Numbered from the stretch's first letter, positions 19,027 to 45,668 are shown. The stretch: 64,000 nucleotides of DNA from a virus (IMGVR_UViG_3300037455_000173:1-64000); one strand, 5' to 3'. The notes: generated by a model from the sequence alone, not told the origin. Translations and numbers: made by a program.

Positions 19027-19067
19027 TTATACATGGTTTGCAAACCGTTGGTATACGTTAGCGTGCT
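19027..19067 (-). promoter_or_regulatory. Class II motif AGCACGCTA-N24-ATGTATAA, copy 2
   Basis: TTATACAT-N24-TAGCGTGCT on the + strand. Confidence 0.65.
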
Positions 19068-19918
19068 TAATTCTGTGGTTGGTAGGCTACAGATACAGCG
19101 TCTCCGGTATCGTTTACGGTACAATTCGGATAAATATCGGGTAGATATTGCTTAATGAGATTATCAATCCAAGGTGCTGCTTCTGCTGAGCTTTCACCAG
19201 GAAAAGGTATTATCTGGATAGTATTACCCTTCTTTTTAAAATGACCTACTTTATATCCCGGACATAGCCGACGCCAGGCTTCGATTATCGACTTATCGTC
19301 TATAGAAACTTTCTTATCACCCTTAAAGGTATTTAATCCCCTGAGTAGCATGTCCAGCCGCTTCATATCCCAAGAGCTATCAGACACCTTATTTGCAGCA
19401 CCTTCCTGCTGCACTCTTAGTGTCATGAAAAATACCTTCTGGTTTTCCATATCAGCTGTACGATTACCTTTGCGAACTGGTGTTACATGATTACCGTAGA
19501 CTTCACCACGACGTTCTGTAATCTTTAGATTATCGATTATTTTAAGACCATACATAGCACCCATAACCTTAAAATTCGGAGTTGAAGCCCATTTATCCAT
19601 TATAGATGCAGGTGATGGATTCTTACGCCGTTCTTTTCTGATTTCACTGGGTAGTATTATATTACCTGTTTCGTCATATTCTAAATCGTCATTCGCAATT
19701 GCAGTTCTGTCTCTGATGTTATCCCATTTTCTATCTAATTGTTCTGAATCTGTATAGTACCAGGTAATTTTATAGCAATCTCTACTTTCAGTAGTGGTTT
19801 TATATCCTACATCATCTCGACTAGAAATCTTATTCAAGGTATCGGTTACTGCTTTTGCAAATTCTTGAGCTGGGGTATTTCTAGAGCAAGATAATTTCAA
19901 TTTTATCATAGATTTCAC
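19067..19918 (-). CDS. Hypothetical basic protein, possible head cargo (N-terminal LSCS motif)
   Basis: Long ORF at the end of the late operon. Confidence 0.7.
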   Translation of the reverse strand: MKSMIKLKLSCSRNTPAQEFAKAVTDTLNKISSRDDVGYKTTTESRDCYKITWYYTDSEQLDRKWDNIRDRTAIANDDLEYDETGNIILPSEIRKERRKNPSPASIMDKWASTPNFKVMGAMYGLKIIDNLKITERRGEVYGNHVTPVRKGNRTADMENQKVFFMTLRVQQEGAANKVSDSSWDMKRLDMLLRGLNTFKGDKKVSIDDKSIIEAWRRLCPGYKVGHFKKKGNTIQIIPFPGESSAEAAPWIDNLIKQYLPDIYPNCTVNDTGDAVSVAYQPQN

Positions 19919-19929
19919 CTACCTATAGA

Positions 19930-19958
19930 AACACCGGGTATATTAAGTACCCGGTGTT
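19930..19958 (-). terminator. Terminator-like hairpin
   Basis: AACACCGGGTA/TACCCGGTGTT. Confidence 0.7.
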
Positions 19959-19969
19959 ATTATTTCGAT

Positions 19970-21862
19970 TTAGTTAAGAACTAAATAGTTACCTGTTGCG
20001 TTCTCAGCCTTAAATGCTTGAATGTCTTCTATAGGCTTCCAGTCTACGAATGTACCGTCGTTAGCAAGAAGCATCTGCATGAGAGTTTCTTTTGCTATCT
20101 CCTCTGTCTCACCAGGTACGACAATCCCGTCAAAATCGTCTTCTGGTAACATACATTCAGCAACGAAACCAGGTCCCTGAAGTGTTGTATCAGCAAGCTT
20201 CTCGTATCCCGTAGCATATGGTGCAAAGTCGCCTTCCTCGAAAATGTGACCTGAAGCGGATTCAGGAGCGAGTTCGCCTGAGCTGTTGAAATCACTATTG
20301 AAGCTTAGAGAAGAGTTCAGTCCAGCAGTTTTCTTAATGTCAGCAGTTTTCTTTTCAATCTTCTCTGTTGCTTTATCGATAGTCTTTTCGTTCTTCTTAG
20401 CATTAGACTGGTGTTTAGCAAATGCTTTCTTAACCTTAGAAAGTACGCTGTCATCGTCCTTAGAAGCAGCAAGTTCAACATCTTCATTAGGATTTACAGA
20501 AGCGTCTAGGTCATCCCAGTTGACATCTTTGTACTTTCTTGCGATGTACTTCTGAATGTCTGGCTTAACCTTCATTGCTTCCGCCCTACCAATGTATTTG
20601 TTGAGGAGTAACCAGGTTACGATAGAAGCGTCTAGCTTATAGGCTTCCTGAGGTGTGATAAGTCCTTGTTCAACCAGTGGCTGAAGAAGCTTAGGATTCT
20701 TACGATAAGCGTCTGTTGCAGTAAATGTACCGTTCTTTACGCCTTCGATAATAGCATCAGCATCATCAGGTACATTCTCAGCTACCTGATAGAGACCACG
20801 TCTAATAAGCTTGTCCTTGATAGCAGGGTCAATCTTAACTGCATAGTCAGGTGAGATGTACTTATTCTGAACGAGCCAGAATAGAAGTTCAGGAACTCTA
20901 CGTGCTACTACCTCAGGTGTAATATACTTATCACGAACAAGGTCCTTAGCCAGCTCAGGCTTAATCTTAAGAACCTTTTCAACATCGACAAGATTACGTC
21001 TGATAAGATTCTTTAGACCAGGTTTGCTCATACTATCAAGCTTAGACTTAGATATACCAGCAGTACCGTCTGCTAAGAATAGATGATATACTCTAGCAGG
21101 TGGGTCTGTCATAACAGTATCCATTAGGTCTGAGAGTAGTCCTGCTAGCCAATAAGCTGCTTTTCTATCTCTCTTGTCTGCAGTATCACCTTCTGCTGTA
21201 TAGTTATACTGACCGTTCTCGATGTCGAGGAAATGACCTTCTCTATGCTTTAGGATAGTACCTTCTGACTCTGGGTCATGATTAGGTCTAAATGCCCAAT
21301 CATCAACACCAGGTCCATCTACTGGTGCTTCAGAATCATCACAGGAAAGTGAAGACTTAATAATCCAGAGCTCTTCATTCATCTTCTGTGACCTGTACAT
21401 AAGAGTACTTACGACAGAATCATAAACCTCTCTAAAAGCTGTATAGCGAAATCCTGGTGGTAAGTCTACAGCTGACTGAGCTGCCTTAAATACATTCTTA
21501 ATTCTAGATGCTAGATTAGGGTCTAGCTTAGAATTAAGATTGGTTGATTGACCAGCAAGTGATGCATAATAAGCATCGATACGTCTGCAGCAGTCGAGAC
21601 TTTCATCAAGCCAACAACCTAGGTCCTCTGCGCACATATCAGGGCTTTCGATATCGTAATCGGGTACGTATGCGAATCCCTCTTCTGCTGCTTCACTTGT
21701 TTCTGATGGTGTGTAGATTTCTACAGCAGTTCCATCAGGAAGTGTGATACAAAAACCTACCTTAGAATCATCTATGATAGTACCTTCTGTTCTGCAGCAA
21801 TTAAGTGTATGAGCATTAGGAATGCCCATAGTCTTACAAACTTCTGAAATGAATACGTTCAT
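19970..21862 (-). CDS. Putative internal head protein with ~22-aa helical repeats and several LNS/LNC motifs
   Basis: Repeats LVRDKYITPE / LVQNKYISPD / LVEQGLITPQ / LLLNKYIGRA. Confidence 0.65.
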   Translation of the reverse strand: MNVFISEVCKTMGIPNAHTLNCCRTEGTIIDDSKVGFCITLPDGTAVEIYTPSETSEAAEEGFAYVPDYDIESPDMCAEDLGCWLDESLDCCRRIDAYYASLAGQSTNLNSKLDPNLASRIKNVFKAAQSAVDLPPGFRYTAFREVYDSVVSTLMYRSQKMNEELWIIKSSLSCDDSEAPVDGPGVDDWAFRPNHDPESEGTILKHREGHFLDIENGQYNYTAEGDTADKRDRKAAYWLAGLLSDLMDTVMTDPPARVYHLFLADGTAGISKSKLDSMSKPGLKNLIRRNLVDVEKVLKIKPELAKDLVRDKYITPEVVARRVPELLFWLVQNKYISPDYAVKIDPAIKDKLIRRGLYQVAENVPDDADAIIEGVKNGTFTATDAYRKNPKLLQPLVEQGLITPQEAYKLDASIVTWLLLNKYIGRAEAMKVKPDIQKYIARKYKDVNWDDLDASVNPNEDVELAASKDDDSVLSKVKKAFAKHQSNAKKNEKTIDKATEKIEKKTADIKKTAGLNSSLSFNSDFNSSGELAPESASGHIFEEGDFAPYATGYEKLADTTLQGPGFVAECMLPEDDFDGIVVPGETEEIAKETLMQMLLANDGTFVDWKPIEDIQAFKAENATGNYLVLN

Positions 21863-21876
21863 ATCGTTCTACCCCC

Positions 21877-22425: not shown

Positions 22426-22457
22426 AGACTCGTCCTCCTTTTTCTTACTTTATAACT

Positions 22458-22527: not shown

Positions 22528-22536
22528 CGTTGTGCT

Positions 22537-22812
22537 TTACTTATTTACACGCTCTTTAAGCTTATAGCTTGCTTTGAACGCGGGTGCCTTACTAGCATTT
22601 ATATCGATAGGTTTCTTAGTCTGAGGATTTACACCCACACGAGCTGCACGGTTACGTACCTCGAAAGTACCGAAAGACTGTACAGTAAGAGAATCACCTT
22701 TCTCGAGCAGTTCAGCAATAACGTCAAATACTCCATTAAATGCCTTGTATGCCTGGTCATTAGTAAAGCCTGTCTTTGCCTTTAGCGCAGAAATAAACTC
22801 TGCTTTATTCAT
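22537..22812 (-). CDS. hup: HU family DNA-binding protein
   Basis: MNKAEFI…FGTFEVRNRAARVGVNPQT…PAFKAS. Confidence 0.97.
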   Translation of the reverse strand: MNKAEFISALKAKTGFTNDQAYKAFNGVFDVIAELLEKGDSLTVQSFGTFEVRNRAARVGVNPQTKKPIDINASKAPAFKASYKLKERVNK

Positions 22813-26987: not shown

Positions 26988-27320
26988 TTACTCTATCTCA
27001 GGCTCGCCGCCAACAGCAGCATCCTCTTCAGCAAGAGTTTCTGTATTGAGGTCAACCTCAACCGTATACTCCTCGCCAGCCTCAGGTACGCAGTTAAGAA
27101 TAACACCTGTATCTGATGGCTCGATAGAAATGCTAATGCTAGGGTCAGTAGACATCTCAGCCAGAATAGACTGTACGATTGTCTCGACATCCTCGATGCT
27201 GTAATATACAACACCGTCCATCTCCTTAGAAGAGTTGAGGTTTGTTTCACCGGTCTCCTCTGTCTTCTTAGAGCTGTTCAGGTCAAGCTTGAGAAGCTTT
27301 CTTTTAGCATCCTTTGCCAT
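26988..27320 (-). CDS. Acidic putative core/scaffold protein with two LNSS motifs
   Basis: LDLNSSKK, TNLNSSKE; AGGAGG RBS. Confidence 0.65.
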   Translation of the reverse strand: MAKDAKRKLLKLDLNSSKKTEETGETNLNSSKEMDGVVYYSIEDVETIVQSILAEMSTDPSISISIEPSDTGVILNCVPEAGEEYTVEVDLNTETLAEEDAAVGGEPEIE

Positions 27321-28602: not shown

Positions 28603-29973
28603 TTAATATACCAGGTTGGTAACAACGCCACGGATGAATGCCTTCGGATTAACCATCTTCATTGCATTTGATGTTGCGAAGCCCTGCTGACCTGTGAATG
28701 TAGCATCCATAAGAGCAGCTGTTGCTGTAACAGGCATATATGTGCCGAATACATAAGAAGGCTCAACATCGTTAGAAGAAACGTGACCGAGAACATACTG
28801 GTCGTGAGGAATACCACCACGGAAGCAGTAAACCTTCTTATCACCAAGTTCGCCGGCATAGTAAGAACCAGTTGTCTTCTGAGTGTTAGCAGCTTTGAAC
28901 ATAGTCATACCCTGAATAACAGTCATAACGCTGGAACCAACGAGCATGAAGTTAGGACGAATACGACCGGTTGCGTCGTAAATTCTCTGAGAACCTGCGT
29001 TAATAGCTCTGATGAAAGAGTTATCGTGTGCAAGGTCACCAGCTTGTCCCTGACCGATAGGAGGTGTAGCGCTCCAAACAACAGGCTGACCTGCTGCTGC
29101 GTTCATCCACATATCGTGAGCAACCTTTGTGTTGAGTTCGTTTACGATAGTTGAAGTTGCCTGCTCCTCGAGCATCTTAGGACCATCAAGACCATACTGC
29201 TGTTCCATATCGTAAGCAGCTGCCTGTGACCAACGTGCTGCTAGAGTATTGTCCTCTGCAACAAGGTCGAGCCACTCAAGAGTGCTGTAGATAGGAGGTG
29301 TGTTAGCAGAAGCTGAAATGTTATCAACTCTGTAAGAAGCAAGTGTAGTAGCAGCTGCTGTTACACCTGTGATAACACCTGTTGCATAGTCGATAGTACC
29401 TGCATCAGTAATAGTTGTACCATTTAGATACTGAATCTTACCTTCGCCATCATCGAAATATGTGTTGCCAGCTTGCTCAACTATTCTAACAGTTGTAGGA
29501 ACAACAGGAGCACGGAGGAAGAGGTCTGTTAGAGGTTCATTATTCACGTCACTACCTGAATAGTTCTCTGTACCTCTTGCGAGCTCGAATGGGCTTGCAG
29601 AAACCTGTCCAGCCTTTACTGTACCCTTATCCTCACCGAAGTGGAAAAGAGTGTAAGGAATGGAAGTATGTCTGCTAGACATTGGCTGCATGGTGCAGAA
29701 CTCAGGAATGAGCCAATCAACGAGTGTTGCACGAAGAACATTCATATAAGTTGTCTTCTGGAGCACATCACCCGGCTGAGTAGCGCTTGGAATAATAGAT
29801 GTAGGAAGGAGACTCGAGTTGAGTGCTCTCTTCTGCAGTGCGTATGCGTTATTGAGTATCTTCTGAGCCTTTGAAAGCCCAATAGCGTCATACTGACTTA
29901 GTCCTTTGGCAGTACGGCTGGAGTTCAGGCTCTGAATGCCAGACTTGCCTGCGTTTGTGTACGGCTTAAGCAT
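28603..29973 (-). CDS. Major capsid protein (T4 gp23-like)
   Basis: MQPMSS, LAARWSQAAAYD…YGLD, ELN, PNFMLVGS, YMPV. Confidence 0.9.
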   Translation of the reverse strand: MLKPYTNAGKSGIQSLNSSRTAKGLSQYDAIGLSKAQKILNNAYALQKRALNSSLLPTSIIPSATQPGDVLQKTTYMNVLRATLVDWLIPEFCTMQPMSSRHTSIPYTLFHFGEDKGTVKAGQVSASPFELARGTENYSGSDVNNEPLTDLFLRAPVVPTTVRIVEQAGNTYFDDGEGKIQYLNGTTITDAGTIDYATGVITGVTAAATTLASYRVDNISASANTPPIYSTLEWLDLVAEDNTLAARWSQAAAYDMEQQYGLDGPKMLEEQATSTIVNELNTKVAHDMWMNAAAGQPVVWSATPPIGQGQAGDLAHDNSFIRAINAGSQRIYDATGRIRPNFMLVGSSVMTVIQGMTMFKAANTQKTTGSYYAGELGDKKVYCFRGGIPHDQYVLGHVSSNDVEPSYVFGTYMPVTATAALMDATFTGQQGFATSNAMKMVNPKAFIRGVVTNLVY

Positions 29974-32479: not shown

Positions 32480-35400
32480 TTATCTACCTGATTGTGTTAT
32501 TCTTTCAAGGAATTCCCAATCGTCAGGTCCACGCTCGAAAGAATTTTTATCATATGGTTGTAGGCCACCGAATAGCTTGTTGGTTAGTGATGCAGGCATT
32601 CGACTTTCTGGTTCATGCGAATACATTCTGAAATCATGGAGTACAGGTGCATAAGGCAGTAAGCTTAAATCCCATACAGCACCAGCTAGGCTATCGGAAA
32701 TATCCTTACTATTGTGAACAAATACGCCACAAGCTAATGCGAAGTTGGGATTATCTTCTATTGTAAGGTCATATACACGACTAGGTTTATCGATAAATTC
32801 TACAGAAACCACCTTATGGTTTCGATTAAAGGTTCTACCTCTTCTGTAACCCTCAGGAGGTTGCTCATAAGCCTTGATGTACAGGTTTTCTACACCATTT
32901 GTCCACCAAACTCTTCCTGAAATCGCTTCGTGTGCTTTCTGGAACTTACCTTCCTTATGCCTTTCTGATAACGATTTAGAAGTACGCTGCAAGATAGTAG
33001 GGTCTTTACGTCTTGCAAGTTTATTACCCAACGCATTTTTCTCGTCTAATGTAAGAGTATTCCAATCTATATTAAACTCTTTTTCAATCTCCTTGATGTG
33101 TTCTTGTTTACGAACTACTTCAGGCTTATAATTGTCAGTCTTGGTTGCATAATAATTATACAATGACTGTCTCGTCTTCTCAGAACGCGCTTCATAAGCA
33201 GCGGTACCTCGATTATCTTCATGCCACTGTCTGATAGTGGCTGATAATTTTTTATAGTCTTTAGTATTTAGATTATGGATTCTGGTATGCTCACTCTGGG
33301 TAACTAATTGTAGATTAGTTGGTGTATTATCATGTTTCTTAAAGTTTTTATGATGTACTACCTTACCACAACCCGGTTCCCAACCAGGACAGAACGTGTG
33401 ATATTCCAATTCCCATGTTTCGTAAGCGGGTTGGTATAGACTGTGATATTCGGTATCTTTAAATTCATGATATAATGGCATTAATGAACTACCGGTAGAT
33501 AAAGTCTGAGCTTCTACATAAGTACCGTCTCTTAGCATAAATAGATGTTCAGGAGTGCAGGTAATACTTTCACCGTTATCTAGTGTAATTCTAACTAGGT
33601 GTTTAGTTATCTTGGTCTGATGTGCTTTCAGAATGCGTTTCGGTTCAATGCGAAGAGTATCCTCATTTACAGTATATACCCAGTTAGTTCTATACTCCTG
33701 TTCACGAACTAATTCTTCCATGGTAAGTACTCGACCGTCTGTAAGTTGTACTCTAGTGTCGCCAGTGAAACAACCATTAGCTGGGTGGTCCAGCTTACCT
33801 GTATGCGTATCATGCTGAAGATATATTAATTCATTTTCTAATCTAGCGTAATGAATTAGACTTATACGTTGCTCCATCATTGCATCACGTAGAGTTTTGT
33901 AGCCTTCTGGTGTACGGTCAAGTGAACGAATAGCAGTGGTAAATCCCTTATCACGCAATATCTGATGTGATTCAGCTGTCTGGAACGTATCAGTACTGAT
34001 TATAGCAATGTGAAATCCCATACTCCTAAGCCAGTAGATAAAACGTCTGTTCTTAGCTAAGCTTATCTCAGTACCAGGTGGTGCTTTGATACCTACCGAG
34101 AATACCTGCGCATATACACGTTTTTCAATAGTACCGTCGTCTGTATCAGCTAAGACGTTATCTACATAGCACGCACCAGATATACCTGTAATATCGTTCT
34201 TTAACGAAGTATCCAGGTGAATAGCCATTGGTCGTGAGAAATACTCTTTAGGTACCTTTTCTAGGTCAAAAAATTCTTGGTATTCCATATGGTCATTGCA
34301 ACCTATTTCAAGTACCTCAGCTGAGAAGGGATTTGGTCGTTCTGTATAACAAGAGCTAATAATTTTATAGCTAAAGTAACTGGTTGTACCTGGTAATGCT
34401 TTACCAGCAAGGTCCTGTAGAGCAGTTATGATATTAAATCGGAAATCTGACTCCATTTCGACGGGAACATCAAGTATCTCATAACCGAGTACCTTCAGAG
34501 CTTCAATATCCTCGCCTTCCTCAACAACTCTAGGAGTTAGCTGTTTTGCGCCGTAAGCTACTTTGAACATTTTACCAGAATATGTATCTGATGGTTTTAC
34601 AACCCACAACGGTTCATCTACGATAAACAGTTTATCCGCGTCTTTTTCTTTTCTACGTTTATCTAGATACACCTCAAGAAAGTCATCTTCTGCCTTCTTA
34701 GACGAAACCAAGAACATCTTACCGAGGAGTTTTCCATTTCGAATAAAACGTGATTTAATTCTGGCTTTAACTGAAGAATAAGTCTGCATAATCTTAGACT
34801 TTTCCATAGTTGTATTAGAACCAGGTGCGAAGTTAACCTCATCGAGGAATCCACAGAATATTTGCTGACCTAAACCGTGACTTGCTTTAGAACCGGCTTT
34901 AATAGCAATATGCTTACTAGGTACATAATAAGGATTAGACGCTGAACCCGCAACTGTTCCATGAGCCAGGAACCAAGGCGATTCCATCAGACACGCATGA
35001 AGTCTACCGTATCCAACACTTTGAGCAAGTGCAACAGTAGCATTGAAGAAAAATATCGCAATTTCATCTGTGTCTGCAAATCCAAAATATCGCTGAGGAA
35101 ACCGTAGACAGAGTAGACGATAGGTCAGATATGCGATTGCGTAAACCGCGATGGCAGTCTTGCCAATTCCAATTGCACCTGTAAAAGCAATTTCTTCATA
35201 TTCTGTATCACCGCCTGCAAATATCTTTCTTAATTGTTCTCTCCAAAATGGGTATATCTGATTTCCTAGATTAGTGGCTTTACCTAGATATTCAGGGTCT
35301 TCTAGGAAAGTATCGATATCTACAGGTATTTCCTCATAATCCTCTAACCATACTTTTTCATAGGTTTCGCTTTCACCTGTTTCGGACAATTCTTGAAGAA

Positions 35401-35494
35401 TTTGTCTCATTACTTCCTGTTCTCTATCCGTCAATGAATTATAGATACTTTGGAATCGTTCAGGTGACAGCATAACCAGATTGGCAGCGGTCAT
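32480..35494 (-). CDS. terL: Terminase large subunit, interrupted by an intein
   Basis: Walker A GAIGIGKT, Walker B FLDE, HLDTS, STDTFQ, LDHP-[intein]-SKDISDSLAG. Confidence 0.92.
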   Translation of the reverse strand: MTAANLVMLSPERFQSIYNSLTDREQEVMRQILQELSETGESETYEKVWLEDYEEIPVDIDTFLEDPEYLGKATNLGNQIYPFWREQLRKIFAGGDTEYEEIAFTGAIGIGKTAIAVYAIAYLTYRLLCLRFPQRYFGFADTDEIAIFFFNATVALAQSVGYGRLHACLMESPWFLAHGTVAGSASNPYYVPSKHIAIKAGSKASHGLGQQIFCGFLDEVNFAPGSNTTMEKSKIMQTYSSVKARIKSRFIRNGKLLGKMFLVSSKKAEDDFLEVYLDKRRKEKDADKLFIVDEPLWVVKPSDTYSGKMFKVAYGAKQLTPRVVEEGEDIEALKVLGYEILDVPVEMESDFRFNIITALQDLAGKALPGTTSYFSYKIISSCYTERPNPFSAEVLEIGCNDHMEYQEFFDLEKVPKEYFSRPMAIHLDTSLKNDITGISGACYVDNVLADTDDGTIEKRVYAQVFSVGIKAPPGTEISLAKNRRFIYWLRSMGFHIAIISTDTFQTAESHQILRDKGFTTAIRSLDRTPEGYKTLRDAMMEQRISLIHYARLENELIYLQHDTHTGKLDHPANGCFTGDTRVQLTDGRVLTMEELVREQEYRTNWVYTVNEDTLRIEPKRILKAHQTKITKHLVRITLDNGESITCTPEHLFMLRDGTYVEAQTLSTGSSLMPLYHEFKDTEYHSLYQPAYETWELEYHTFCPGWEPGCGKVVHHKNFKKHDNTPTNLQLVTQSEHTRIHNLNTKDYKKLSATIRQWHEDNRGTAAYEARSEKTRQSLYNYYATKTDNYKPEVVRKQEHIKEIEKEFNIDWNTLTLDEKNALGNKLARRKDPTILQRTSKSLSERHKEGKFQKAHEAISGRVWWTNGVENLYIKAYEQPPEGYRRGRTFNRNHKVVSVEFIDKPSRVYDLTIEDNPNFALACGVFVHNSKDISDSLAGAVWDLSLLPYAPVLHDFRMYSHEPESRMPASLTNKLFGGLQPYDKNSFERGPDDWEFLERITQSGR
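32711..33772 (-). mobile_element. Intein (354 aa) with an HNH-type homing endonuclease
   Basis: Starts CFTGDT; block B CTPEHLF; VVHHKNFKKHDNTPTNL; ends VYDLTI…VHN, followed by Ser. Confidence 0.92.
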
Positions 35495-35500: not shown

Positions 35501-35695
35501 TCACCCTTTCTTTTTCTTTGCTAACTGCATCGTTTCTCTATCTAACCTCACTTCAGGCATCTTAACACCTCTCGTGATAGTAATGAATAAGGAGGACTCA
35601 TCATCTGGGTCCTCCTTTACATCTACAGTAAGCACATCCTGATAAAGAGAACGAGCAGCTTTTTCAGCCTCCCTACGCTCTTTCTTTGAAATCAT
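35501..35695 (-). CDS. Hypothetical protein
   Basis: Coupled ORF upstream of terL. Confidence 0.65.
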   Translation of the reverse strand: MISKKERREAEKAARSLYQDVLTVDVKEDPDDESSLFITITRGVKMPEVRLDRETMQLAKKKKG

Positions 35696-36012
35696 TTTGT
35701 TTCTACCTCAGGATTCAGGTAAGCATTAATATCAGCACCTATTGCATACAGGTCAGCTACCCAATCAAGTAACTGCTTTGTATTGTCCTGAGATTCACCG
35801 GAAGTTTCACTTACAGGTGTCTCTAGTCTAGCCTCAACCGATGCAGCAAGCTGCTGTGCTTGGTCAGTTAGATTTTGAGAAATAGTCAGAAGTAGTTCAC
35901 GGTCTACACCGATAGAACTATTCAGCTTAGTATTGGTTGTTTTCTGGGTTTTCGGATTGTAACGTACCATTATTAACGACCTCCTGTTCGATTTTAGGTT
36001 GACTCTGCTCAA
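35692..36012 (-). CDS. Hypothetical protein with an LNSS motif (likely start MVRYNP)
   Basis: AGGAGG before the internal ATG. Confidence 0.65.
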   Translation of the reverse strand: MSRVNLKSNRRSLIMVRYNPKTQKTTNTKLNSSIGVDRELLLTISQNLTDQAQQLAASVEARLETPVSETSGESQDNTKQLLDWVADLYAIGADINAYLNPEVETK

Positions 36013-36985: not shown

Positions 36986-37506
36986 AGCTTTGCGAACTCC
37001 TTTGCAGCATCACGAATATGCTGACGCTCTTTAGACGATAGGTCAGTCTGCTGAGAGTCTTCAATCGTGTCAAATATAATAGCATCCTGAACATCGGTTG
37101 GTACATCGATGTTCTTGGTTGCTTGTTGAAGTGAAATAAGCAACTGAGTATACATCGGTATATACTGAGCGTCATGGTCAACATCTGATTGCATAAGAGC
37201 ATCTATTGCGTATTCTAGCTTATTGGTAAGTTTATCGGTAATCCTATTATAACGGAGCAGACGTAATTCCTTGTTTCGTTCTTTAAGCTGTTGGATTAGC
37301 TTCAACCTTGTACCAGGTTGAATAGCTCTTATAGCTTCTGTATCACTTATTAACAGATGGTATATGAGTTGATTGTTTCTTTCCACCCAAGCTTGTAGAC
37401 CTTGATACGATTCATCTGATTTGGGCAATTCAATCGGTTGACCAGTTCCATAGTTAAAGACGTCAGTATAATTCTTTACGGTTGCTTCATATTTAGGATT
37501 ATTCAT
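36934..37506 (-). CDS. Hypothetical helical protein, candidate terminase small subunit
   Basis: Size and position upstream of terL only. Confidence 0.4.
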   Translation of the reverse strand: MNNPKYEATVKNYTDVFNYGTGQPIELPKSDESYQGLQAWVERNNQLIYHLLISDTEAIRAIQPGTRLKLIQQLKERNKELRLLRYNRITDKLTNKLEYAIDALMQSDVDHDAQYIPMYTQLLISLQQATKNIDVPTDVQDAIIFDTIEDSQQTDLSSKERQHIRDAAKEFAKLCTNTSTDSQKTGAQTT

Positions 37507-37981
37507 CTACATCACCTGTATTACCATTATCGGTAGATGGTTCTGTATAAGAACCAGTTTCAATGTCGAAACCTACTCTTTTTCCTGATATTTCAGGATT
37601 AGTAAATTCTACATGACCTAGGCTATGAAGGATATCTTCAAGACGTTGAGCCGTCTCCTTAGATACCTTGTCTTCGAATTCGAAAACAACGGACTGGTCT
37701 TGATTTATGAATACTCGAGTCATCTTGGGTATATCACCGTGGATTCGCACATTATAGTATAAAGTGCGAAGCATAGTAGCATCAAAATAAGACGGATATA
37801 ATGCCTGGTGTACAGGAATAGACTCATGGAAATTAAAGTTAAGGCTAGAGTTTAATTTCGGAGCCTTACAATCAAGTCTTTTTATCTCATTCTGAGCTTT
37901 CTGACTAAAGAGCTTCATAAATTCGTTAGGGTTTACTCGATTCTGCCTTGCACAATCAAATCTGAGAATAGTACCGAACAT
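37499..37981 (-). CDS. Hypothetical protein with LDC/LNSS motifs
   Basis: ORF with RBS. Confidence 0.65.
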   Translation of the reverse strand: MFGTILRFDCARQNRVNPNEFMKLFSQKAQNEIKRLDCKAPKLNSSLNFNFHESIPVHQALYPSYFDATMLRTLYYNVRIHGDIPKMTRVFINQDQSVVFEFEDKVSKETAQRLEDILHSLGHVEFTNPEISGKRVGFDIETGSYTEPSTDNGNTGDVDE

Positions 37982-37984: not shown

Positions 37985-38635
37985 TTAGTCCTCCTTTCGG
38001 TTAGTCTGAGCATCTAAGATACTCCGTATATTCATTGGTACAATTAACCAAGAAAAATCCAATGCAGTATTCTTAGCTAAATCTACTTCCATTATGTCAC
38101 CACCGAAATTCTTAATCGGAGGTGGATATTGCCTTAGTAATTCAGGCGTTTTATTCTCATCGAATAACACGACTACATGAGTATGTCTTTCCATACAGCC
38201 ACGAATTCGACAATTACCAGTCAATACAGTAGAATTAGACTGAACTTTGTGTTTCTTTATACACCACCGCACAGTAGTATAGCCTAATGCTAAAGCAGCT
38301 TCAAGGTACTTATAGGTTTCATCATTGATAATAGGATTAAGCTTAAATCTGATATCAAAACCCCATTGTCTTAATCCCTTTAGAATCTCTTCTGTAGTTA
38401 GAAACGCATCATCGTCGTAATCAACGATAGTTCCAGAAGCAGCTGTAAATGCAGCAAAGACTACACCGAAAGCGGGGTGTACTACTTGTATTCTACCGCC
38501 TTCTAGCACATGAGAATTAACGAATTGGGTATAGACAATTTTCAATGACTTATCTATATTACTAACGCAATTGGTAGCTTGTCTCCAACTGTCTATAGCA
38601 TAATATTTAGGTCTGAATTCGTCCATTCTTATCAC
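37985..38635 (-). CDS. Hypothetical protein
   Basis: Long ORF in the operon. Confidence 0.7.
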   Translation of the reverse strand: MIRMDEFRPKYYAIDSWRQATNCVSNIDKSLKIVYTQFVNSHVLEGGRIQVVHPAFGVVFAAFTAASGTIVDYDDDAFLTTEEILKGLRQWGFDIRFKLNPIINDETYKYLEAALALGYTTVRWCIKKHKVQSNSTVLTGNCRIRGCMERHTHVVVLFDENKTPELLRQYPPPIKNFGGDIMEVDLAKNTALDFSWLIVPMNIRSILDAQTNRKED

Positions 38636-38901
38636 CCCTTAGGTGCATATGAGCCGTCAGCTTGTAGACAATGGAAACCACCCGTGGTTTGAATTGGGAC
38701 TCCCATCCAGGTACCTTCCTTATCGTCCCAGAATACTAAGATAGTGCCAGCATTCGATAATACAGTAAAGGCAGTACCTAGCTTACGAAACTTCTTATAA
38801 TCAGGGCACGTCTTTAATATATTCTCTACCTCAACTTCTGACTTACCAGCAAGGTCTTTTGTATTTATCGTGTTATCAGAATTAAGCTGAACATTTATCA
38901 T
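38632..38901 (-). CDS. Hypothetical protein
   Basis: Coupled ORF. Confidence 0.65.
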   Translation of the reverse strand: MINVQLNSDNTINTKDLAGKSEVEVENILKTCPDYKKFRKLGTAFTVLSNAGTILVFWDDKEGTWMGVPIQTTGGFHCLQADGSYAPKG

Positions 38902-39337: not shown

Positions 39338-39589
39338 TTAACCTAAATCAGGCTGTCTGAAAGGACTAGGTAATGTACCAGAATTTAGTGATATCTGATT
39401 TTGAATTAAGCCAGGCGGTACACCACAGCCTGTAGCAATTTTATTCCTAATCTCATTCTGGTCTTTGAGATATTGATAAGCTTTAAGCTCATTGACAGCA
39501 TGCTCTAGGTCTTCTCTAGATACAATAGCAAACTCATCTTGACTTGCCTTAGCTTCTAAAGAAGCGATTAGCTGATTAAGACTTTTCAT
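39338..39589 (-). CDS. Hypothetical protein
   Basis: First gene after a class I promoter. Confidence 0.65.
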   Translation of the reverse strand: MKSLNQLIASLEAKASQDEFAIVSREDLEHAVNELKAYQYLKDQNEIRNKIATGCGVPPGLIQNQISLNSGTLPSPFRQPDLG

Positions 39590-39685: not shown

Positions 39686-40888
39686 TCAATTATAAGTAAT
39701 GCCGGTTAAATTAGGGTACTCAGCAATGATAGCATTTCGTTGAGTTTCACCGGACACCCAGATAGTACAATCGTTAGGTATCCCTGTAAATACATCGTCT
39801 TGCTCTATTAGTGGAATGTTACCAGTACCTACCTTAGTGAAGTCTATACTGGTTACATCGATTTCTTGTAAACTGGTGCAATTCTTGAATAAACCTTCAA
39901 TATTGGTTACCTGATTAAAACAGCACGCACTTAAATCTAAAGTTTCTAATGCAGTATCTCCTGCGAACATATAGCTTATATCGGTTGCATTATGTGTATC
40001 CATTAACTGTAAACCAACAATATTCTGTAGCAGCACGTTAGCTGCTAACGCATAACTAAAGGTAGTTACATTACCAGTGTAAATATGTGTTAAATTAAGA
40101 ACCGTAGCTTGCTGTTGATAAAACATATGAACTGCGGTGGTAAAATCAGAAGCGTCAGTTTTAGTCCGTAATTCACATTCCTTGTACCATGTATCAGCTG
40201 GTACCGCTTGTACAGATGTTATGTCAGCATAGTAGGTAGTTATAGGTGTTACACCTGCTGCACTATCATAACCAACTATACAATATGGTTGGGTTAATTG
40301 TCCATTATAATTATCTTCTAATTTTAATAATCTAGGTAAGATATCACCTGTCATTATTCCGGCTTTACCTAGAGTAGCTGCTGGTATATTACTTGCTAAC
40401 GGTGTATTCTGTCCGGTGACGGGATTTACAGAAGTTAGATAAGAAGTTAGCTGCTCATAACTTGCACCATAACCTAGTCCAACGCTAAATAATCGGTTAA
40501 GCGGTATAGCTAAATCTAATTTATTAAGTAACCTATATCTGATTCTGAAATCAACTGCAGGCACACTATTAGCATATAGATATAACTTACCGTCTGCAGT
40601 TTCAACTGCCTTAATAGTTCTAAATGCAGAATATTGAGCTTGTTTATCGGCTTGTGTAGCATTATATGAATATACCAGCTGTATCACTGGTACAGTTTCT
40701 GTATTAATATCATAATAGGTAGTTTCCCAACGATACTGCGTACCAGAGATAGACCAGTCTGTTCTATTTACATTAACATATACTAAACCACTGCTTTGGT
40801 GATATGATGGATAGACATTAATAAAGTCATCTGAATTGGCAAACACTAACTCTACTGATTGAGATATCTGGCTTACTGTAAAATACAT
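39686..40888 (-). CDS. Fibre/surface protein with C-terminal BspA/DUF285-like leucine-rich repeats
   Basis: DTHNATDISYMFAGDTALETLDLS…VTNIEGLFKNCTSLQEIDV; ATG 40888 has an AGGAGG RBS. Confidence 0.75.
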   Translation of the reverse strand: MYFTVSQISQSVELVFANSDDFINVYPSYHQSSGLVYVNVNRTDWSISGTQYRWETTYYDINTETVPVIQLVYSYNATQADKQAQYSAFRTIKAVETADGKLYLYANSVPAVDFRIRYRLLNKLDLAIPLNRLFSVGLGYGASYEQLTSYLTSVNPVTGQNTPLASNIPAATLGKAGIMTGDILPRLLKLEDNYNGQLTQPYCIVGYDSAAGVTPITTYYADITSVQAVPADTWYKECELRTKTDASDFTTAVHMFYQQQATVLNLTHIYTGNVTTFSYALAANVLLQNIVGLQLMDTHNATDISYMFAGDTALETLDLSACCFNQVTNIEGLFKNCTSLQEIDVTSIDFTKVGTGNIPLIEQDDVFTGIPNDCTIWVSGETQRNAIIAEYPNLTGITYN

Positions 40889-40943
40889 ATCTATGTACCT
40901 CCTATGTAATTGCTTAAATGCAGGCAACTGCGGTGTATATACT

Positions 40944-41068: not shown

Positions 41069-41500
41069 TTACTGGAAGAAGTCACCGGAATCTTCTGAAC
41101 CTGTGGTTTCACCCATTCTGTTGTCTCCTGATTCGGAGTCTGGTTCCCCTCCGGCGGATTCGTCAGATTCGTCTGGGATTTCTGGGATTTCTTCGGCTCC
41201 TTCTTCGGCTCCTTCTTCGGTCGACTCTTCGAATGACTCATCTTCACTCACCTCTGGTTTTTGTGGTGTAATGTTCAATGACGCAAGCTGGATAAAATCT
41301 TCTGGATAGGATTCAGAGTCACTTATCTGAACCTTTTTGGTTTTAGGATTATACAGCAGAACTGCTTTTCGTAAATCTAAAGAGCTACCGTCCTCTAGAG
41401 TAATGATTGAACCGACATCCTGCATAAACTGCTCATCGACGTCGTTCTCGAACTGACTGGGACTAACCTCAGCAGCAGAATTTAGCTTAAACTTTCTCAA
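41069..41500 (-). CDS. Acidic putative internal head protein
   Basis: AGGAGG + TTG start; FKLNSAA; domain similar to the C-terminus of 44529..45668. Confidence 0.65.
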   Translation of the reverse strand: MRKFKLNSAAEVSPSQFENDVDEQFMQDVGSIITLEDGSSLDLRKAVLLYNPKTKKVQISDSESYPEDFIQLASLNITPQKPEVSEDESFEESTEEGAEEGAEEIPEIPDESDESAGGEPDSESGDNRMGETTGSEDSGDFFQ

Positions 41501-41502: not shown

Positions 41503-41859
41503 TCAGTCACCTCCTAGGTCACGAAGACCTGAATAATGATTAAGTCTGTAGGTAAGAGAAGCAGTTAATCGTTGACATTGATACCTACGATTATTTCTTA
41601 TCTTCCTCCAGAAATATTTACCTTTAGAACCCGCATTATACAAACCCTTGGCAATATTCATGGGAACATCAAAGTAGGTATATACGGAACCGTCTTTAAA
41701 CCTAATCCAAAGTTGCTGTTTGTCTACCTTATATACCATACCGTCTATATTAGACGACTGAAAGTCGGTATACATTTTTTCCTTTTCACGCTCAGCACCA
41801 GGATGATTCTTGGTAAATGGATTAGCTTGAGAATTAATCTTGCAATTTAGTCTTAGCAC
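41503..41859 (-). CDS. KTSC-domain protein
   Basis: QSSNIDGMVY…LWIRFKDGSVYTYFDVP…LYNAGSKGKYFWRKIR. Confidence 0.9.
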   Translation of the reverse strand: MLRLNCKINSQANPFTKNHPGAEREKEKMYTDFQSSNIDGMVYKVDKQQLWIRFKDGSVYTYFDVPMNIAKGLYNAGSKGKYFWRKIRNNRRYQCQRLTASLTYRLNHYSGLRDLGGD

Positions 41860-42532
41860 CGTTACCCCTACTTCCTGTATAATCTAATGACTCTAAGTCA
41901 CCGTATTCTATTGTAGTTGCTTCCTCGAATGTTAGGTACTTCCAGACAAAATCATACGGACGAGCTACCGACGGTATTTTACCCATATTATAGATTTCAT
42001 CTTCCCAGAAATAATCGAAAGCGAATTGATTATCTGGTGCAACGTCCATCCAATGTAAACAGCACTGCCTAATTCGACGTTCTATACGCTCTTTACTGGT
42101 TGGTGTTCGAGCGCCTTGTACATCTGAAATATGGTCTTGGAAATACCAAAGAACCCACTCAGCAGCGGCTTCGAATGTCGGATATATCTGACGTAGATTA
42201 CCCCAAGGTGTATAGCGTCCTATAGGTCGATTGGTTATACGACGCATCGCTTCTTTATGAGCATCTTTATACATTTTCCAATGCTCAGTCTTATACTCCA
42301 GACGTTCTGGGATTTCAGGTTCATTACTGAAATCCCATTTAGATACGTCATAATTATATGTCAAGTCAGTAATACCAAGTATTTTCTGACGATAAACCTC
42401 ATTACGCAAACTAACGATATGTCTGCGATATTTCTGATACGGTGTAAGTTGAGCAAATCTTTCTGGATTCATCCAACGTAACTTCCACCGTATCTTATCT
42501 TTTTGAAGCGAATTACGCATCAGAGGTTGCAT
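41834..42532 (-). CDS. Basic protein with a NUMOD1-like DNA-binding module
   Basis: IGRYTPWGNLRQIYPTFEAAAEW…AFDYFW; TAATG coupling at 42532. Confidence 0.55.
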   Translation of the reverse strand: MQPLMRNSLQKDKIRWKLRWMNPERFAQLTPYQKYRRHIVSLRNEVYRQKILGITDLTYNYDVSKWDFSNEPEIPERLEYKTEHWKMYKDAHKEAMRRITNRPIGRYTPWGNLRQIYPTFEAAAEWVLWYFQDHISDVQGARTPTSKERIERRIRQCCLHWMDVAPDNQFAFDYFWEDEIYNMGKIPSVARPYDFVWKYLTFEEATTIEYGDLESLDYTGSRGNGAKTKLQD

Positions 42533-42849
42533 TAATCTTCCTCCTTGAGGTCCTTTCCAGGAATCTGCTCCATTTTCCACTCGTAGCCATATGCAGATTT
42601 AGTATCATCGCAACCATATACAGCAAATTGAATACGCTTATATATGCTTTCTTCTTTTGCTTTTGTTTTGCTGTGGTTTTTAACCCACTCAACAGCATCC
42701 CACATATTATCATATGTCTGTTTAACAACACCGTCTTCTAGACGTTGTACATGATACTCGGTTGTGCTATCAGAAATCTGCTCCTTGGTTTCTTCTGTGT
42801 GCTCGTGATTAGCAAACGAAGAATTGAGTGATTTAGTAATACGTAACAT
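42532..42849 (-). CDS. Small NUMOD3/NUMOD1-like DNA-binding protein with an N-terminal LNSS motif
   Basis: HTEETKEQISDS; QTYDNMWDAVEWV…SAYGYEWK. Confidence 0.6.
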   Translation of the reverse strand: MLRITKSLNSSFANHEHTEETKEQISDSTTEYHVQRLEDGVVKQTYDNMWDAVEWVKNHSKTKAKEESIYKRIQFAVYGCDDTKSAYGYEWKMEQIPGKDLKEED

Positions 42850-42858
42850 ATTATCACC

Positions 42859-44499
42859 TCAGTTTAGCATAGACTCATCGAAACCTAGAACGTTAATCAT
42901 TAACTTCTTAGCTTCTTCCTCGCTAACACCTAGTTCTTCCATGATAGCTTTCATCTCATGCTGTGTTTCGGTATCCCAGTTACCTGATACTGGTGTAGAT
43001 GATGAATATCTATCAGCTATCTCATAAAGTTTATCAGTATCGATAGATGAATTTAAGTCTTCACCTTCAGGGAATCTGAACTTCATATCCTGGTCGATTG
43101 CTTCTTTAGCTTCATCAACTGTCTTATATACACCTGGTAAGAAAGCACCATAAGGGCTAACGCATACATAACCTATCCTATCTGAACCGGATATAAAGTA
43201 ACCACGATATCTCATACCATCGTTCATCAAGTCAGGTGATTCAGGGTCGATGGTAGAATTATTCAAAGACACATCATCGACGATTATTGCAAAACCGCCT
43301 TCAAGTGGTTTAATTCCTGCTAGCTTAATACCCATTTCTTTTGCTAGAGGTTCTACATCAGCTGACTCCATACCGCGTACGATAATCTTGTAACCGGTTT
43401 TGCCATCTTCCATAGTCGGTACGGCACTAACCTGTTGAGCTGTTTGCTTGATTTTATCCACGAATACCTTAAGTGCAGGATTATCATGTACCGAACTATT
43501 TAGTTCAGATTTCTTGGAAGAATCCATCTTAACATTATCTTCCATATCGCAAATGGTTTCCCAGCTACAATTTGGATACTGTTCATCGAAACTATCAAGA
43601 ATAGCCTCGTATAACTCAATACCAGTTAAACCTGCCGGTACCTCGATTACAGCTGGTTCGTCTATTTCATTACCATTCTCATCTACATAGAATACCTGAT
43701 ATGCCTGATTAGCTTCAGCTATAGGTTCTTCCTCAGATAATGAACTATTAGTAGATGTAGTACTATTGAAGTTTGCAACGTCAGCTACAATCTCCTCGAT
43801 AGCACGGTCGATAACGTCTTCGTAACCATTTCCACCCTCAAAGCTAATCTGCATTGTAGTGGCGTTAGGACGTGCCAACTCCTTTACAGCTACCTCATAG
43901 CCCTTGTCGAATAACTCACCCTCGATGATATTCCGAAGGTCCATCAGCTGTGACTTTTCACGACCAAAATTCTCTGGTACGGTTACCTCACTAATCGAAC
44001 AGTTCAGATTACTGTCGATATCTGGTTCGTTACCTAGAGGATTGATTGCCATCGTATTCAGCACCTCATCAACAAGACCTAAATCTTCAAGTGCCTCTAC
44101 TACTGCAACTAGAGCCTCGTGCGTATCGATATCAGAAAGCTGCTCCCGTAGGTTAGAGCCTTCAGGAGCAGCTTCATCGTTGATTGCAGAAAGAACTTCA
44201 TCGGCTTTACCTAGGTACTCTATGCATTGAACTACATAAGTCAGAACGTCGTGTTCATCATCACCGGCGTCTGCAAGAACTTCCTTTATGTTTTCTGAAC
44301 AGTCTAGTTCATTCTTTTTTCTAGAGGAATCGAACTGAGATACATAATCATCGTAGTCACTTCCGTAGAGCAGCTTTTCTGACTCATCGATGAATTCAAC
44401 TGCATCATCAAGATTGTCGAAATCATAGTATTCACCTTCATAATTGATTAAGAAGGAGTCACCAGATTCACTCTGTTCGATAGTGTACCCATGGTACAT
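42859..44499 (-). CDS. Acidic multi-segment putative internal head protein; probably the -1 frameshift extension of 44529..45668
   Basis: No clear RBS; frame open upstream to the A8G tract; six or more LNS-like motifs. Confidence 0.7.
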   Translation of the reverse strand: MYHGYTIEQSESGDSFLINYEGEYYDFDNLDDAVEFIDESEKLLYGSDYDDYVSQFDSSRKKNELDCSENIKEVLADAGDDEHDVLTYVVQCIEYLGKADEVLSAINDEAAPEGSNLREQLSDIDTHEALVAVVEALEDLGLVDEVLNTMAINPLGNEPDIDSNLNCSISEVTVPENFGREKSQLMDLRNIIEGELFDKGYEVAVKELARPNATTMQISFEGGNGYEDVIDRAIEEIVADVANFNSTTSTNSSLSEEEPIAEANQAYQVFYVDENGNEIDEPAVIEVPAGLTGIELYEAILDSFDEQYPNCSWETICDMEDNVKMDSSKKSELNSSVHDNPALKVFVDKIKQTAQQVSAVPTMEDGKTGYKIIVRGMESADVEPLAKEMGIKLAGIKPLEGGFAIIVDDVSLNNSTIDPESPDLMNDGMRYRGYFISGSDRIGYVCVSPYGAFLPGVYKTVDEAKEAIDQDMKFRFPEGEDLNSSIDTDKLYEIADRYSSSTPVSGNWDTETQHEMKAIMEELGVSEEEAKKLMINVLGFDESMLN

Positions 44500-44528
44500 A
44501 TACAGACCGTCACCGGTCGATTCAACAT

Positions 44529-45668
44529 TTAGTTCTTTTTTTTAGATGAGTCGAGTTCTTCGTCACCCTCAGCAACTTCCTCTACCTCAGTTTCCTCTAC
44601 AGGAAGTGCAGGCTGAGTTGCTGTTGCGATTACAACGAATCCTTCAGGAATTTCCTCATCTTCATCTTCCTTAATGAAGAGTGAAATTTCGTTAGTTTCA
44701 GGATTCTGAATAATCTGAATGTCACTGAGTGAAATCTCATTACCGGACTCTGTCATGATTTTAGGCTCACTGTCTTCAGCACAGTTGAGCTCCTTGGAGC
44801 TAGCAAGGCTGCTATTAGCAGACTGAACATCCCACTCGTTGTAACTACCTGGCCAGGCCATAAAGAAGGAAGTAACTTCTGGTACATTTTGGCTAAGGTA
44901 CTGTTTGAGTGAGCGGACAAGACTTGGTAGGCAGCTATTATGAAATGCCTCCTCGCCTTCACCTGCAACTACATACTCGCCTTCTGAATCTCTAGCCTTG
45001 TCGTCAAACTCGATATTTAGGATTGTATCAGAACCACTACCAGGTTCGCCTACGCTCCAGCCCTGATTATCGACGTTTCTATCGACGCGCCAACCGGTGA
45101 TAGCTAAATCACTACCTATTTCAGAATTAGTGCTTGTAATCCAGTCTTCTACTATTTTCTTCGCGCCATCCATCTCCGGTGAAGACTCTTCATCAAATTT
45201 AGGCTTATCATTCTCGAAACCAAAATTGACACCACGGTTATCGCGTTGGTCAGCCAGTTCAACACCTAGAGAACCATCACTGTCGTAGTCATCTTCTTTA
45301 ACATACCAACCACCATTTCCGCGACACCAGAGCTGTGTAACGCCGTCTTTGGTAGCCCAGAATTCACCGTCATAGTTGTCAACTTCGTCGATAGTTGCAA
45401 GACGCTCAACTGTTGCACCAGTCCTCTCCTCGAATGCATCGATGAGCTCTTCAGCTTCTTCCTGAGTATAAATCTGCTCCTCGTTTACCAGCTGATTAAT
45501 CACCTCTTCACGACTACAGTTCAGTTTCTGCTTTCTGCGGTCTTTAATTGATTCTGGTAACTTCTTGGAGCTATTCAACGCCTTATTTCTAGGACGTCTC
45601 ATAGGTGCCTTCTCTTCTGTCTTTTCAGAAGACTTACCAGGCATGATGTTTCTGTTTACATTTACCAT
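44529..45668 (-). CDS. Acidic putative internal head/core protein
   Basis: AAGGAG RBS; ALNSS, KLNCS, ELNCA, ELDSS. Confidence 0.75.
   Translation of the reverse strand: MVNVNRNIMPGKSSEKTEEKAPMRRPRNKALNSSKKLPESIKDRRKQKLNCSREEVINQLVNEEQIYTQEEAEELIDAFEERTGATVERLATIDEVDNYDGEFWATKDGVTQLWCRGNGGWYVKEDDYDSDGSLGVELADQRDNRGVNFGFENDKPKFDEESSPEMDGAKKIVEDWITSTNSEIGSDLAITGWRVDRNVDNQGWSVGEPGSGSDTILNIEFDDKARDSEGEYVVAGEGEEAFHNSCLPSLVRSLKQYLSQNVPEVTSFFMAWPGSYNEWDVQSANSSLASSKELNCAEDSEPKIMTESGNEISLSDIQIIQNPETNEISLFIKEDEDEEIPEGFVVIATATQPALPVEETEVEEVAEGDEELDSSKKKN
44535..44543 (-). other. Slippery tract A8G (contains A_AAA_AAG), candidate -1 frameshift site
   Basis: TCT AAA AAA AAG AAC TAA; the -1 frame runs into ORF 42859..44499. 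Confidence 0.65.

Follow-up and report, generated by a model that had tools for sequence, protein, structure and literature searches.

A Leu-Asn-Ser-Ser motif in late proteins of an uncultured phage as the probable cleavage site of a gp21-type prohead protease

The window analysed here comprises 64,000 nucleotides (nt), the first 64 kb of the single 166,592-bp contig IMGVR_UViG_3300037455_000173, which belongs to an uncultured phage. Proteins encoded in its late region share a short motif whose consensus, read from the sequences, is L-[N/D]-[S/A/C]-[S/A] with the core L-N-S-S. This motif is probably the recognition and cleavage site of the phage's own prohead serine protease, an enzyme of the gp21 type. 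The cut would fall between the third and fourth residues, with Leu at P3, Asn at P2, Ser, Ala or Cys at P1 and Ser at P1'. That the motif is cleaved, and at which bond, we infer from sequence comparison of the protease, of the major capsid protein and of the scaffold domains fused to the protease in most of its relatives.

Distribution of the motif in the proteome

The late genes are read from the minus strand, between about 46 and 19 kb. We counted the motif in the non-overlapping open reading frames (ORFs) of the whole genome, a set of 234 ORFs and 50,965 amino acids (aa). Exact LNSS occurred 10 times in 7 of these ORFs, all on the minus strand within 19970-45668, and an eleventh copy was found in ORF 35692-36012, which is absent from the overlap-filtered set, so that the total is 11 copies in 8 late ORFs. 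The remaining 201 ORFs of the genome (42,432 aa) contained none. Shuffling of residues within each late protein gave a mean of 0.15 copies and a maximum of 3 in 2000 shuffles (Poisson P = 1.6e-15), and the comparison of late ORFs with the rest was equally clear for exact LNSS (Fisher P = 1.7e-8) and for the degenerate form L-N-[SAC]-[SAC] (15 copies late versus 5 elsewhere, P about 1e-8). LNSS ranks third among the 4-mers of the whole proteome.

A first-pass annotation of the window had reported that LNSS and its variants recur in about 15 head-region proteins and had suggested that their frequency be compared between late and other proteins. Every example that it listed was present in the ORF named, including the variants LNCS, LNCA, LNCC, LDSS, LDCS, FDSS, MDSS, LNSA, LDAS, LAAS and LTAS, and LNSS was enriched over the compositional background, as the above counts indicate. 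The number of proteins was too high: about 12 have a candidate site that is conserved in orthologues, and LNSD in 38632-38901, LNSG in 39338-39589 and LSCS in 19067-19918 are weak candidates only.

Five Leu codons, the two Asn codons and the full set of six Ser codons are represented among the copies of LNSS. Since the codons vary from copy to copy, selection acts on the peptide rather than on the DNA, and a DNA-level repeat was rejected as the origin of the motif. The copies are also unevenly placed, eight of the eleven falling within the first 51 residues of their host protein (binomial P = 5.5e-5). In at least eight non-capsid proteins the first candidate site lies at residue 4-31, and it is conserved while the leader before it varies.

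Conservation was followed in six related sequences: four IMG/VR genomes (G001-G004) with capsids 91-96% identical, an ENA contig (L012) with a capsid 72% identical, and a Logan contig (L014) with a capsid 36% identical. The late regions of G001, G003 and G004 also have LNSS as their commonest 4-mer, and L012 has four LNAS and four LNSS against 0.37 expected. In alignments of orthologues the sites are kept while their flanks drift, as is the case for LNCS and LNCA in the large ORFs and for LNCC at residue 20 of a 630-aa protein.

The head protease and its specificity classes

The features that carry the argument are the following.

29988-30590, minus strand: prohead protease, 200 aa, gp21/S77-like, without a fused scaffold (PHROG 207 'head maturation protease', E 3.7e-9)
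30108-30119, minus strand: L-A-A-S, residues 158-161, at the end of the protease domain (V-Q-L-A-A-S); predicted self-release at LAA|S before a 40-aa helical tail
28603-29973, minus strand: major capsid protein, 456 aa, Gp23 family (Pfam PF07068, E 4e-23)
29917-29928, minus strand: capsid LNSS site 1, residues 16-19, within the propeptide
29812-29823, minus strand: capsid LNSS site 2, residues 51-54, predicted maturation cut S53|S54

The protease gene sits between the portal and major capsid genes, all three on the minus strand. As a single sequence the protease has no Pfam match, and one homologue (P0063) matches PF03420 weakly. A profile built from the protease and 143 homologues matches T4 gp21 (5JBL) with an E value of 2.5e-32. 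An AlphaFold2 (AF2) model of the enzyme, with a predicted local distance difference test score (pLDDT) of 83, has chains A-C of 5JBL as its best Foldseek matches (E 5.6e-6, TM-score 0.62-0.64 on the target); herpesvirus proteases come next. Five residues are invariant in all 144 sequences, namely H62, S117 (in G-[IV]-S-x-R-G), R119, D143 and V145, and His62, Ser117 and Asp143 are the predicted catalytic residues. Judged by its profile, its modelled fold and these residues, the protease is a member of the gp21 family.

A HMMER search retrieved 219 homologues, mostly protease-scaffold fusions of 450-550 aa. The fused scaffold is a coiled coil in L014:7142-8806 and in P0062-P0208, that is, in most homologues. 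In the window phage and L012 the protease stands alone (200-212 aa) with a 40-aa helical tail; in the AF2 model residues 164-169 are disordered and residues 175-197 form a helix. Because this protease has lost the fused scaffold of most relatives, the scaffold function of the window phage must lie elsewhere than in the protease gene.

The alignment column at the end of the protease domain divides the family in two: 50 representatives have [I/V/L]-A-A-S and 88 have [I/V/L]-x-E-S, the T4 consensus. LAAS is invariant in G001-G004 and L012 and is IAAS in L014. Since enzymes of the Glu type cut after Glu, the register would be L(P3)-A(P2)-A(P1)|S(P1') and, by extension, L-N-S|S. The fused scaffold tails of the two classes carry opposite motifs.

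Small-P1 class, scaffold tails: I.AS 74, V.AS 63, I.SS 45; per 1000 aa, [LIVM].[AS]S 16.6 and [LIVM].E[AST] 4.9
Glu class, scaffold tails: L.ES 123, L.EA 84; per 1000 aa, [LIVM].[AS]S 2.6 and [LIVM].E[AST] 17.6

As these signals are reciprocal, each class serves as the control for the other. In the small-P1 tails [I/V]-T-A-S is also conserved, about 45 residues before the C-terminal end.

In a tree of protease domains, all 53 small-P1 sequences fall into one clade (support 0.94), within which the lineage of the window phage together with L014 is the sister of a large [IV]-x-A-S group. The columns that best discriminate the classes are 31 and 33. The Glu class has Arg at 31 in 82 of 88 sequences and Tyr at 33 in 87 of 88 (NRNKRLY in T4), while the small-P1 class has Leu or Met at 31 and Ile, Leu or Phe at 33, the window protease having Leu31 and Phe33. 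Across the tree, Arg31 is missing from 53/53 small-P1 tips and present in 90 of the 96 other homologues. From this distribution we propose that the lost Arg bound the carboxylate of the P1 glutamate.

The two capsid sites supply further evidence. Both are retained as LNSS or LNAS in 51 of 57 capsid homologues, those at least 69% identical. LNSS fills both sites in the closer homologues, and LNAS fills both in the majority of those at about 70-73% identity, a joint switch; extra LN[AS]S copies also occur in otherwise unalignable variable inserts of capsid homologues. In T4, 65 N-terminal residues are removed from gp23 (PMC9958956). Residue 76 of the phage capsid aligns with T4 residue 95, and the T4 cut 65|66 projects to about residue 47 of the phage capsid, so that the predicted S53|S54 lies within about 7 residues of it. 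Capsids of the Glu type have MNE, LTE, LLE or MFE just before a conserved (A/T)TQ(P/A)(G/S)D, 9-13 residues downstream of LNSS site 2, and RIRSG of the L014 capsid lies about four residues from ALNSS in the alignment. The placement of LNSS, RIRSG and L-x-E thus puts the motif in the region of maturation cleavage, with a sequence that changes with the lineage.

The code of L014 differs accordingly. No LN[SA]S was found anywhere in that contig, its top gapped pattern is I.SS, and it has 13 copies of R-I-x-[SA]-[SAG] where 0.63 would be expected (P 2e-13). Most of these copies fall within residues 6-28 of the products of genes located between portal and capsid, and several are in the protease itself. 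Conversely, I.S[SG] shows no excess in the window. In a contig of the large [IV]-x-A-S clade, the gene that follows the protease, presumably encoding the capsid, has PVRAS, ITSS, PVKAS and IMAA within its first 70 residues. A dockerin-domain protein is encoded two genes upstream of the protease in a contig of this clade (L035:8426-9595), which hints at a cellulolytic Clostridia host.

These lineage differences bear on two other explanations. If the motif were a modification sequon, for N-x-S/T glycosylation or for modification of Ser or Cys, then the match of LNSS, LNAS, LNCS and LNST to N-x-S/T would be accounted for, and the phage does encode a glycosyltransferase-like protein at 7929-8852. 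However, the conserved variants LNSA, LNCA, LNCC, LDSS and LAAS violate the rule, Leu is invariant although a sequon needs none, and L014 uses I-[R/Q/K/N]-S-[S/G], including the IRSG near the capsid LNSS site. Because P2 is free and P1' can be Gly in L014, and in view of the conserved non-sequon variants, an N-glycosylation sequon is ruled out; the broader notion of a modification site we regard as very improbable.

The sites might otherwise be cut by a protease of the host or by a second one of the phage, or cleave themselves. Inteins are cleaved at their C-terminus through an Asn that precedes Ser or Cys, and one motif-bearing protein (19970-21862) is encoded among tail genes, beyond the reach of a head-confined enzyme. 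Yet the code tracks the lineage of the protease (L/N here, I/x in L014, [IV]-x-A-S in the large clade), the protease bears a copy of its own motif, and family and profile searches of the window proteins found no other late-region protease. Self-cleavage would also have to dispense with Asn in L014 and to accept Ala, Gly or Lys as the fourth residue; as neither Asn nor a nucleophile at the fourth position is constant, Asn cyclisation and an N-to-O/S acyl shift were rejected. Agents other than the gp21-type protease are therefore unlikely overall. The first-pass annotation had proposed exactly such a gp21-like enzyme with a small residue at P1. The paired capsid sites, the [L/I]-A-A-S junction and the opposite scaffold-tail motifs support that proposal computationally, and it is further backed by the monophyly of a class that lacks the conserved Arg and by a distant relative, L014, with a code of its own.

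Candidate substrates and their genomic setting

Apart from the protease and the capsid, two kinds of protein carry candidate sites. The first are small proteins in which a site follows a short leader.

26988-27320, minus strand: 110-aa protein with a basic leader and an acidic C-terminus; LNSS at residue 14 (nt 27270-27281) and at residue 28 (nt 27228-27239)
35692-36012, minus strand: small protein, probable start Met15 (nt 35970); LNSS (nt 35914-35925) closes a leader of about 18 aa
37499-37981, minus strand: 160-aa protein; LNSS at residue 43 (nt 37844-37855), [F/L]-D-C-A at residue 8 (nt 37949-37960)
41069-41500, minus strand: 143-aa protein with a very acidic C-terminus, beginning (M)LRKFKLNSA; LNSA at residues 6-9 (nt 41474-41485)
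41503-41859, minus strand: KTSC-domain protein beginning (M)LRLNCK; LNCK at residue 4 (nt 41839-41850), LTAS at residue 98 (nt 41557-41568)
42532-42849, minus strand: 105-aa protein beginning MLRITKSLNSS; LNSS at nt 42817-42828

The orthologues of these proteins compare as follows. In 26988-27320 the second LNSS is invariant in four relatives, and the first is replaced by LDSS after a deletion. From its probable start, 35692-36012 begins MVRYNPKTQKTTNTKLNSS; its leader is variable and its LNSS invariant in G001-G004 and L012. In 37499-37981, LNSS is found in three relatives and LNAS in L012, and LDCA/LDAG is conserved. Orthologues of 41069-41500 have VNAS or INSG in place of LNSA, giving the pattern [L/V/I]-N-[S/A]-[A/S/G], and relatives of 42532-42849, a protein with a weak NUMOD3 hint only, have LNST in place of LNSS. 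The KTSC protein (Pfam KTSC, E 1.3e-19) has LNCR conserved in four relatives, and a KTSC gene adjoins site-rich genes in L014 as well.

The second kind are large multi-domain proteins with several sites each.

44529-45668, minus strand: 379-aa N-terminal part of a polyprotein; four conserved sites, LNSS 31 (nt 45567-45578), LNCS 49 (45513-45524), LNCA 294 (44778-44789) and LDSS 372 (44544-44555)
42859-44499, minus strand: 546-aa multi-domain protein, the remainder of the same polyprotein; six sites, FDSS 56 (nt 44323-44334), LDCS 65 (44296-44307), LNCS 165 (43996-44007), MDSS 325 (43516-43527), LNSS 333 (43492-43503) and LNSS 482 (43045-43056)
19970-21862, minus strand: 630-aa multi-domain protein, downstream of the tail tube gene; six sites, LNCC 20 (nt 21794-21805), LDCC 89 (21587-21598), LNSK 109 (21527-21538), LDAS 452 (20498-20509), LAAS 464 (20462-20473) and LNSS 515 (20309-20320)

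The first two ORFs are a single in-frame protein in G001, G003 and G004. At their junction in the window (44529-44560, minus strand) a run of eight A precedes the end of the upstream ORF (...LDSSKKKN-stop), and the -1 frame after this run continues as KELNVESTGDGLY into the ATG of 42859-44499. The fusion in relatives and the read-through in the -1 frame together point to a polyprotein of about 930 residues; the split is due either to programmed -1 frameshifting, to transcriptional slippage or to a homopolymer sequencing error. In the AF2 model of 42859-44499, domains with pLDDT 70-86 are separated by low-confidence segments that make up 16% of the chain. Five of the six sites overlap such segments and the sixth (residues 325-328) abuts the segment 327-338. 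The suggestion of the first-pass annotation that motif-bearing proteins are cut into separate domains fits this modelled linker placement and the fused ORF pair.

Four relatives conserve LNCC, LDC[CS], LNS[AK], LDAS and LNSS in their versions of the 630-aa protein. This protein, considered as a tape measure or a head protein, lacks a long coiled coil and matched no family. A domain of about 100 aa inserted in the G001 version resembles, by eye, the C-terminal polyprotein domain of G002/G003 (shared ...GY(N/E)DN...VYV(T/A)...), which suggests that domain cassettes are exchanged between the 630-aa protein and the polyprotein.

We found 39 homologues of the polyprotein, 307-880 aa long, that share parts of their sequence only. 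LNSS is the top 4-mer in these mosaic proteins (90 copies, in 39/39 members), and LDSS (43) and LNCS (42) are also frequent. Between close relatives, non-capsid proteins that bear the motif have diverged more quickly than the remaining late proteins (Mann-Whitney P 0.015); identity is 33-49% for the polyprotein where it is 91-96% for the capsid. The cargo domains gave no Pfam or PHROG match and nothing in the ESM Atlas, and the model of 42859-44499 had no Foldseek match with E <= 0.001.

The mosaic structure could be taken to mean that the motif has no biochemical role and either belongs to a recombination linker cassette or is an accident of composition. A linker of the form [L/M/F]-D-S-S-[K/R]-K-K-x-E-L-[N/D]-[C/S]-S does recur as a unit in the mosaic polyproteins. 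Against this, the motif stands alone in the capsid, in the protease and in single-domain proteins, with unrelated flanks and varied codons, and it outlasts flanks that diverge; an accident of composition is excluded by the shuffling. We consider this explanation extremely improbable.

The motif could instead be a binding or targeting tag that is never cut, for instance one that docks on the capsid interior, the portal or a chaperone. Positions in N-terminal leaders and linkers would also suit a tag, and leaders in T4 both target proteins and are cleaved (PMC9958956). The motif, however, lies at the exact end of the protease domain, where homologues of the Glu type have their cleavage residue, and at the boundary of the capsid propeptide, and close copies such as LDSS-KKKNE-LNCS suit dicing better than docking. 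A pure tag is thus improbable, and cleavage by the gp21-type protease is the reading that we favour.

Four observations weigh against that reading. Some of the N-terminal sites rest on uncertain GTG or TTG starts. The change from Arg to Leu and the switch at P1 map to one branch of the protease tree and so represent a single event, and their correlation is confounded by ancestry. The breakpoints of the mosaic proteins are only weakly associated with the sites (19% versus 10.5% within 5 residues; Mann-Whitney P = 0.06), in a test that is blunt because BLAST alignments run through conserved linkers. Finally, 19970-21862 adjoins tail genes and a head protease should not reach a tail protein; if it is one, its sites would need another explanation. 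Head genes are also found downstream of the tube gene in T4.

The late order begins with a block of small ORFs and the two large ORFs 44529-45668 and 42859-44499, followed by a large terminase that carries an intein (32480-35494), the T4-type portal (30678-32258), the protease (29988-30590) and the capsid (28603-29973). Downstream of the capsid come a gp13-like neck protein, a presumed tail sheath (881 aa, assigned by position alone, with no family match), a tube protein (PHROG 4542) and the 630-aa protein. Further features of the window are these.

30678-32258, minus strand: portal protein (Pfam Portal_T4, E 8e-27), with no candidate site
32480-35494, minus strand: large terminase, 1004 aa versus about 650 aa in G001, G002, G004 and L012; the additional length is due to an intein containing an HNH endonuclease (Pfam Intein_splicing 1.4e-22, HNH_3), and the terminase of L014 (984 aa) likewise bears an intein
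22537-22812, minus strand: 91-aa ORF between the presumed sheath and tube genes, with the look of an HU/IHF-type DNA-binding protein (sequence judged by eye)
39686-40927, minus strand: 413-aa protein with DUF285 and leucine-rich repeats (BspA-like), encoded inside the block of small genes with the motif; a possible surface or receptor-binding protein
7929-8852, plus strand: glycosyltransferase-like protein (PHROG 842, beta-glucosyl-HMC alpha-glucosyltransferase family, E 4e-7)

By capsid, the closest cultured relatives (Bacillus HSE3, Listeria LIS04, Streptococcus GXN1 and Bacillus SP-15, of which SP-15 and LIS04 are Thornevirus) reach just 29-31% identity. A tblastn search with the protease against 50,697 phage records gave no match, and SP-15 and LIS04, the two read at sequence level, look Glu-type. 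Consequently, no cultured member of the small-P1 branch was found.

Comparison with known maturation systems

The characterised head proteases of the gp21 type, those of T4, phiKZ, 201phi2-1 and SPN3US, all cut after glutamate (PMC5694885), and the published literature that we searched yielded none with another P1 residue. The likeness to T4 is extensive. In both phages a homologous protease, by profile and fold, is encoded between portal and capsid, and the propeptide predicted to be removed here ends at nearly the same place. Both have small proteins with short N-terminal leaders ending in the protease motif (PMC9958956; PMC5694885), a hydrophobic P3 (Leu/Ile) and a protease that processes itself, as predicted here (PMC9958956; bioRxiv 10.64898/2026.03.04.709575). 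In T4 such capsid-targeting leaders are those of IPI-III and Alt. The site-rich genes of L014 lie between portal and capsid, as do the T4 core genes. T4 and its characterised relatives, however, cut after Glu in (L/I)-x-E (PMC5694885), whereas P1 in the window phage would be Ser, Ala or Cys within a four-residue code that fixes P2 as Asn or Asp and P1' as Ser or Ala. The window phage further differs from T4 in having Leu in place of the Arg of NRNKRLY, long mosaic polyproteins among its predicted substrates, and no separate gp22-like scaffold gene adjoining the protease.

Giant-phage proteases (phiKZ gp175, SPN3US gp245) resemble the present case in that one short motif recurs in the capsid, at the C-terminus of the protease and in many head proteins that are internal or ejected, and in that their propeptides contain several copies of it (PMC5694885, PMC10052503). 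They cut after Glu, at (S/A/G)-x-E, in contrast to the small P1 proposed here. Herpesvirus assemblin (MEROPS S21; UL26/UL26.5) cuts at (V/L/I)-x-A|S, at a release (R) site behind the protease and at a maturational (M) site towards the C-terminal end of the scaffold. It shares with the window protease a related fold and, as predicted here, a small P1 before Ser or Thr and an R-like site that ends the protease domain; the sites of the pseudorabies virus protease, for instance, are YLQA-T and VQA-S (PMC4498786). The layout of sites in assemblin is mirrored in L014 and most small-P1 homologues, where a fused scaffold carries M-like sites about 45 residues from the C-terminus. The window protease is nevertheless not an assemblin, because its third invariant residue is Asp (D143) and not the second His of a Ser-His-His triad, H62 being its only invariant His; it is also nearer to gp21 by sequence and fold, and it stands alone at 200 aa.

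On these grounds the following course of events is proposed. The protease would join the prohead through its C-terminal helical tail and release itself at LAA|S. It would remove the 53-residue capsid propeptide, dicing it also at 18|19, and would trim leaders of 5-45 residues from about eight small proteins. The polyproteins (44529-45668 joined to 42859-44499, and perhaps 19970-21862) would be cut to single small domains that are kept in the head. The analogy with T4, the short leaders and the gene order in a relative suggest that the motif-bearing proteins are packaged in the prohead and may be injected. More tentatively, and with considerable doubt, one can picture a branch of the gp21 family that lost the Arg reading the P1 Glu, reached an assemblin-like Ala/Ser|Ser specificity and tightened it to L-N-S|S, with effector domains loaded as polyproteins, diced and injected.

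A sister class of gp21-type proteases that cuts at Ser/Ala/Cys|Ser, so far recognised in silico, would narrow the gap between the maturation proteases of phages and herpesviruses, and the change of Arg to Leu or Met offers one candidate residue for the difference in specificity. Bacteria are known to exploit the Glu specificity of head proteases: a loop with an LPE motif in the CD-NTase (cGAS/DncV-like nucleotidyltransferase) of the CBASS (cyclic oligonucleotide-based antiphage signalling system) defence baits them (bioRxiv 10.64898/2026.03.04.709575). A specificity for residues other than Glu could, if true, hide the protease from such host sensors. The protease and its site, being compact and orthogonal, are a possible tool. 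The four-residue code lets sequence alone flag proteins of uncultured gut phages that are likely to be internal to the head and possibly injected, and the fast-evolving mosaic polyproteins are natural candidates for anti-defence effectors.

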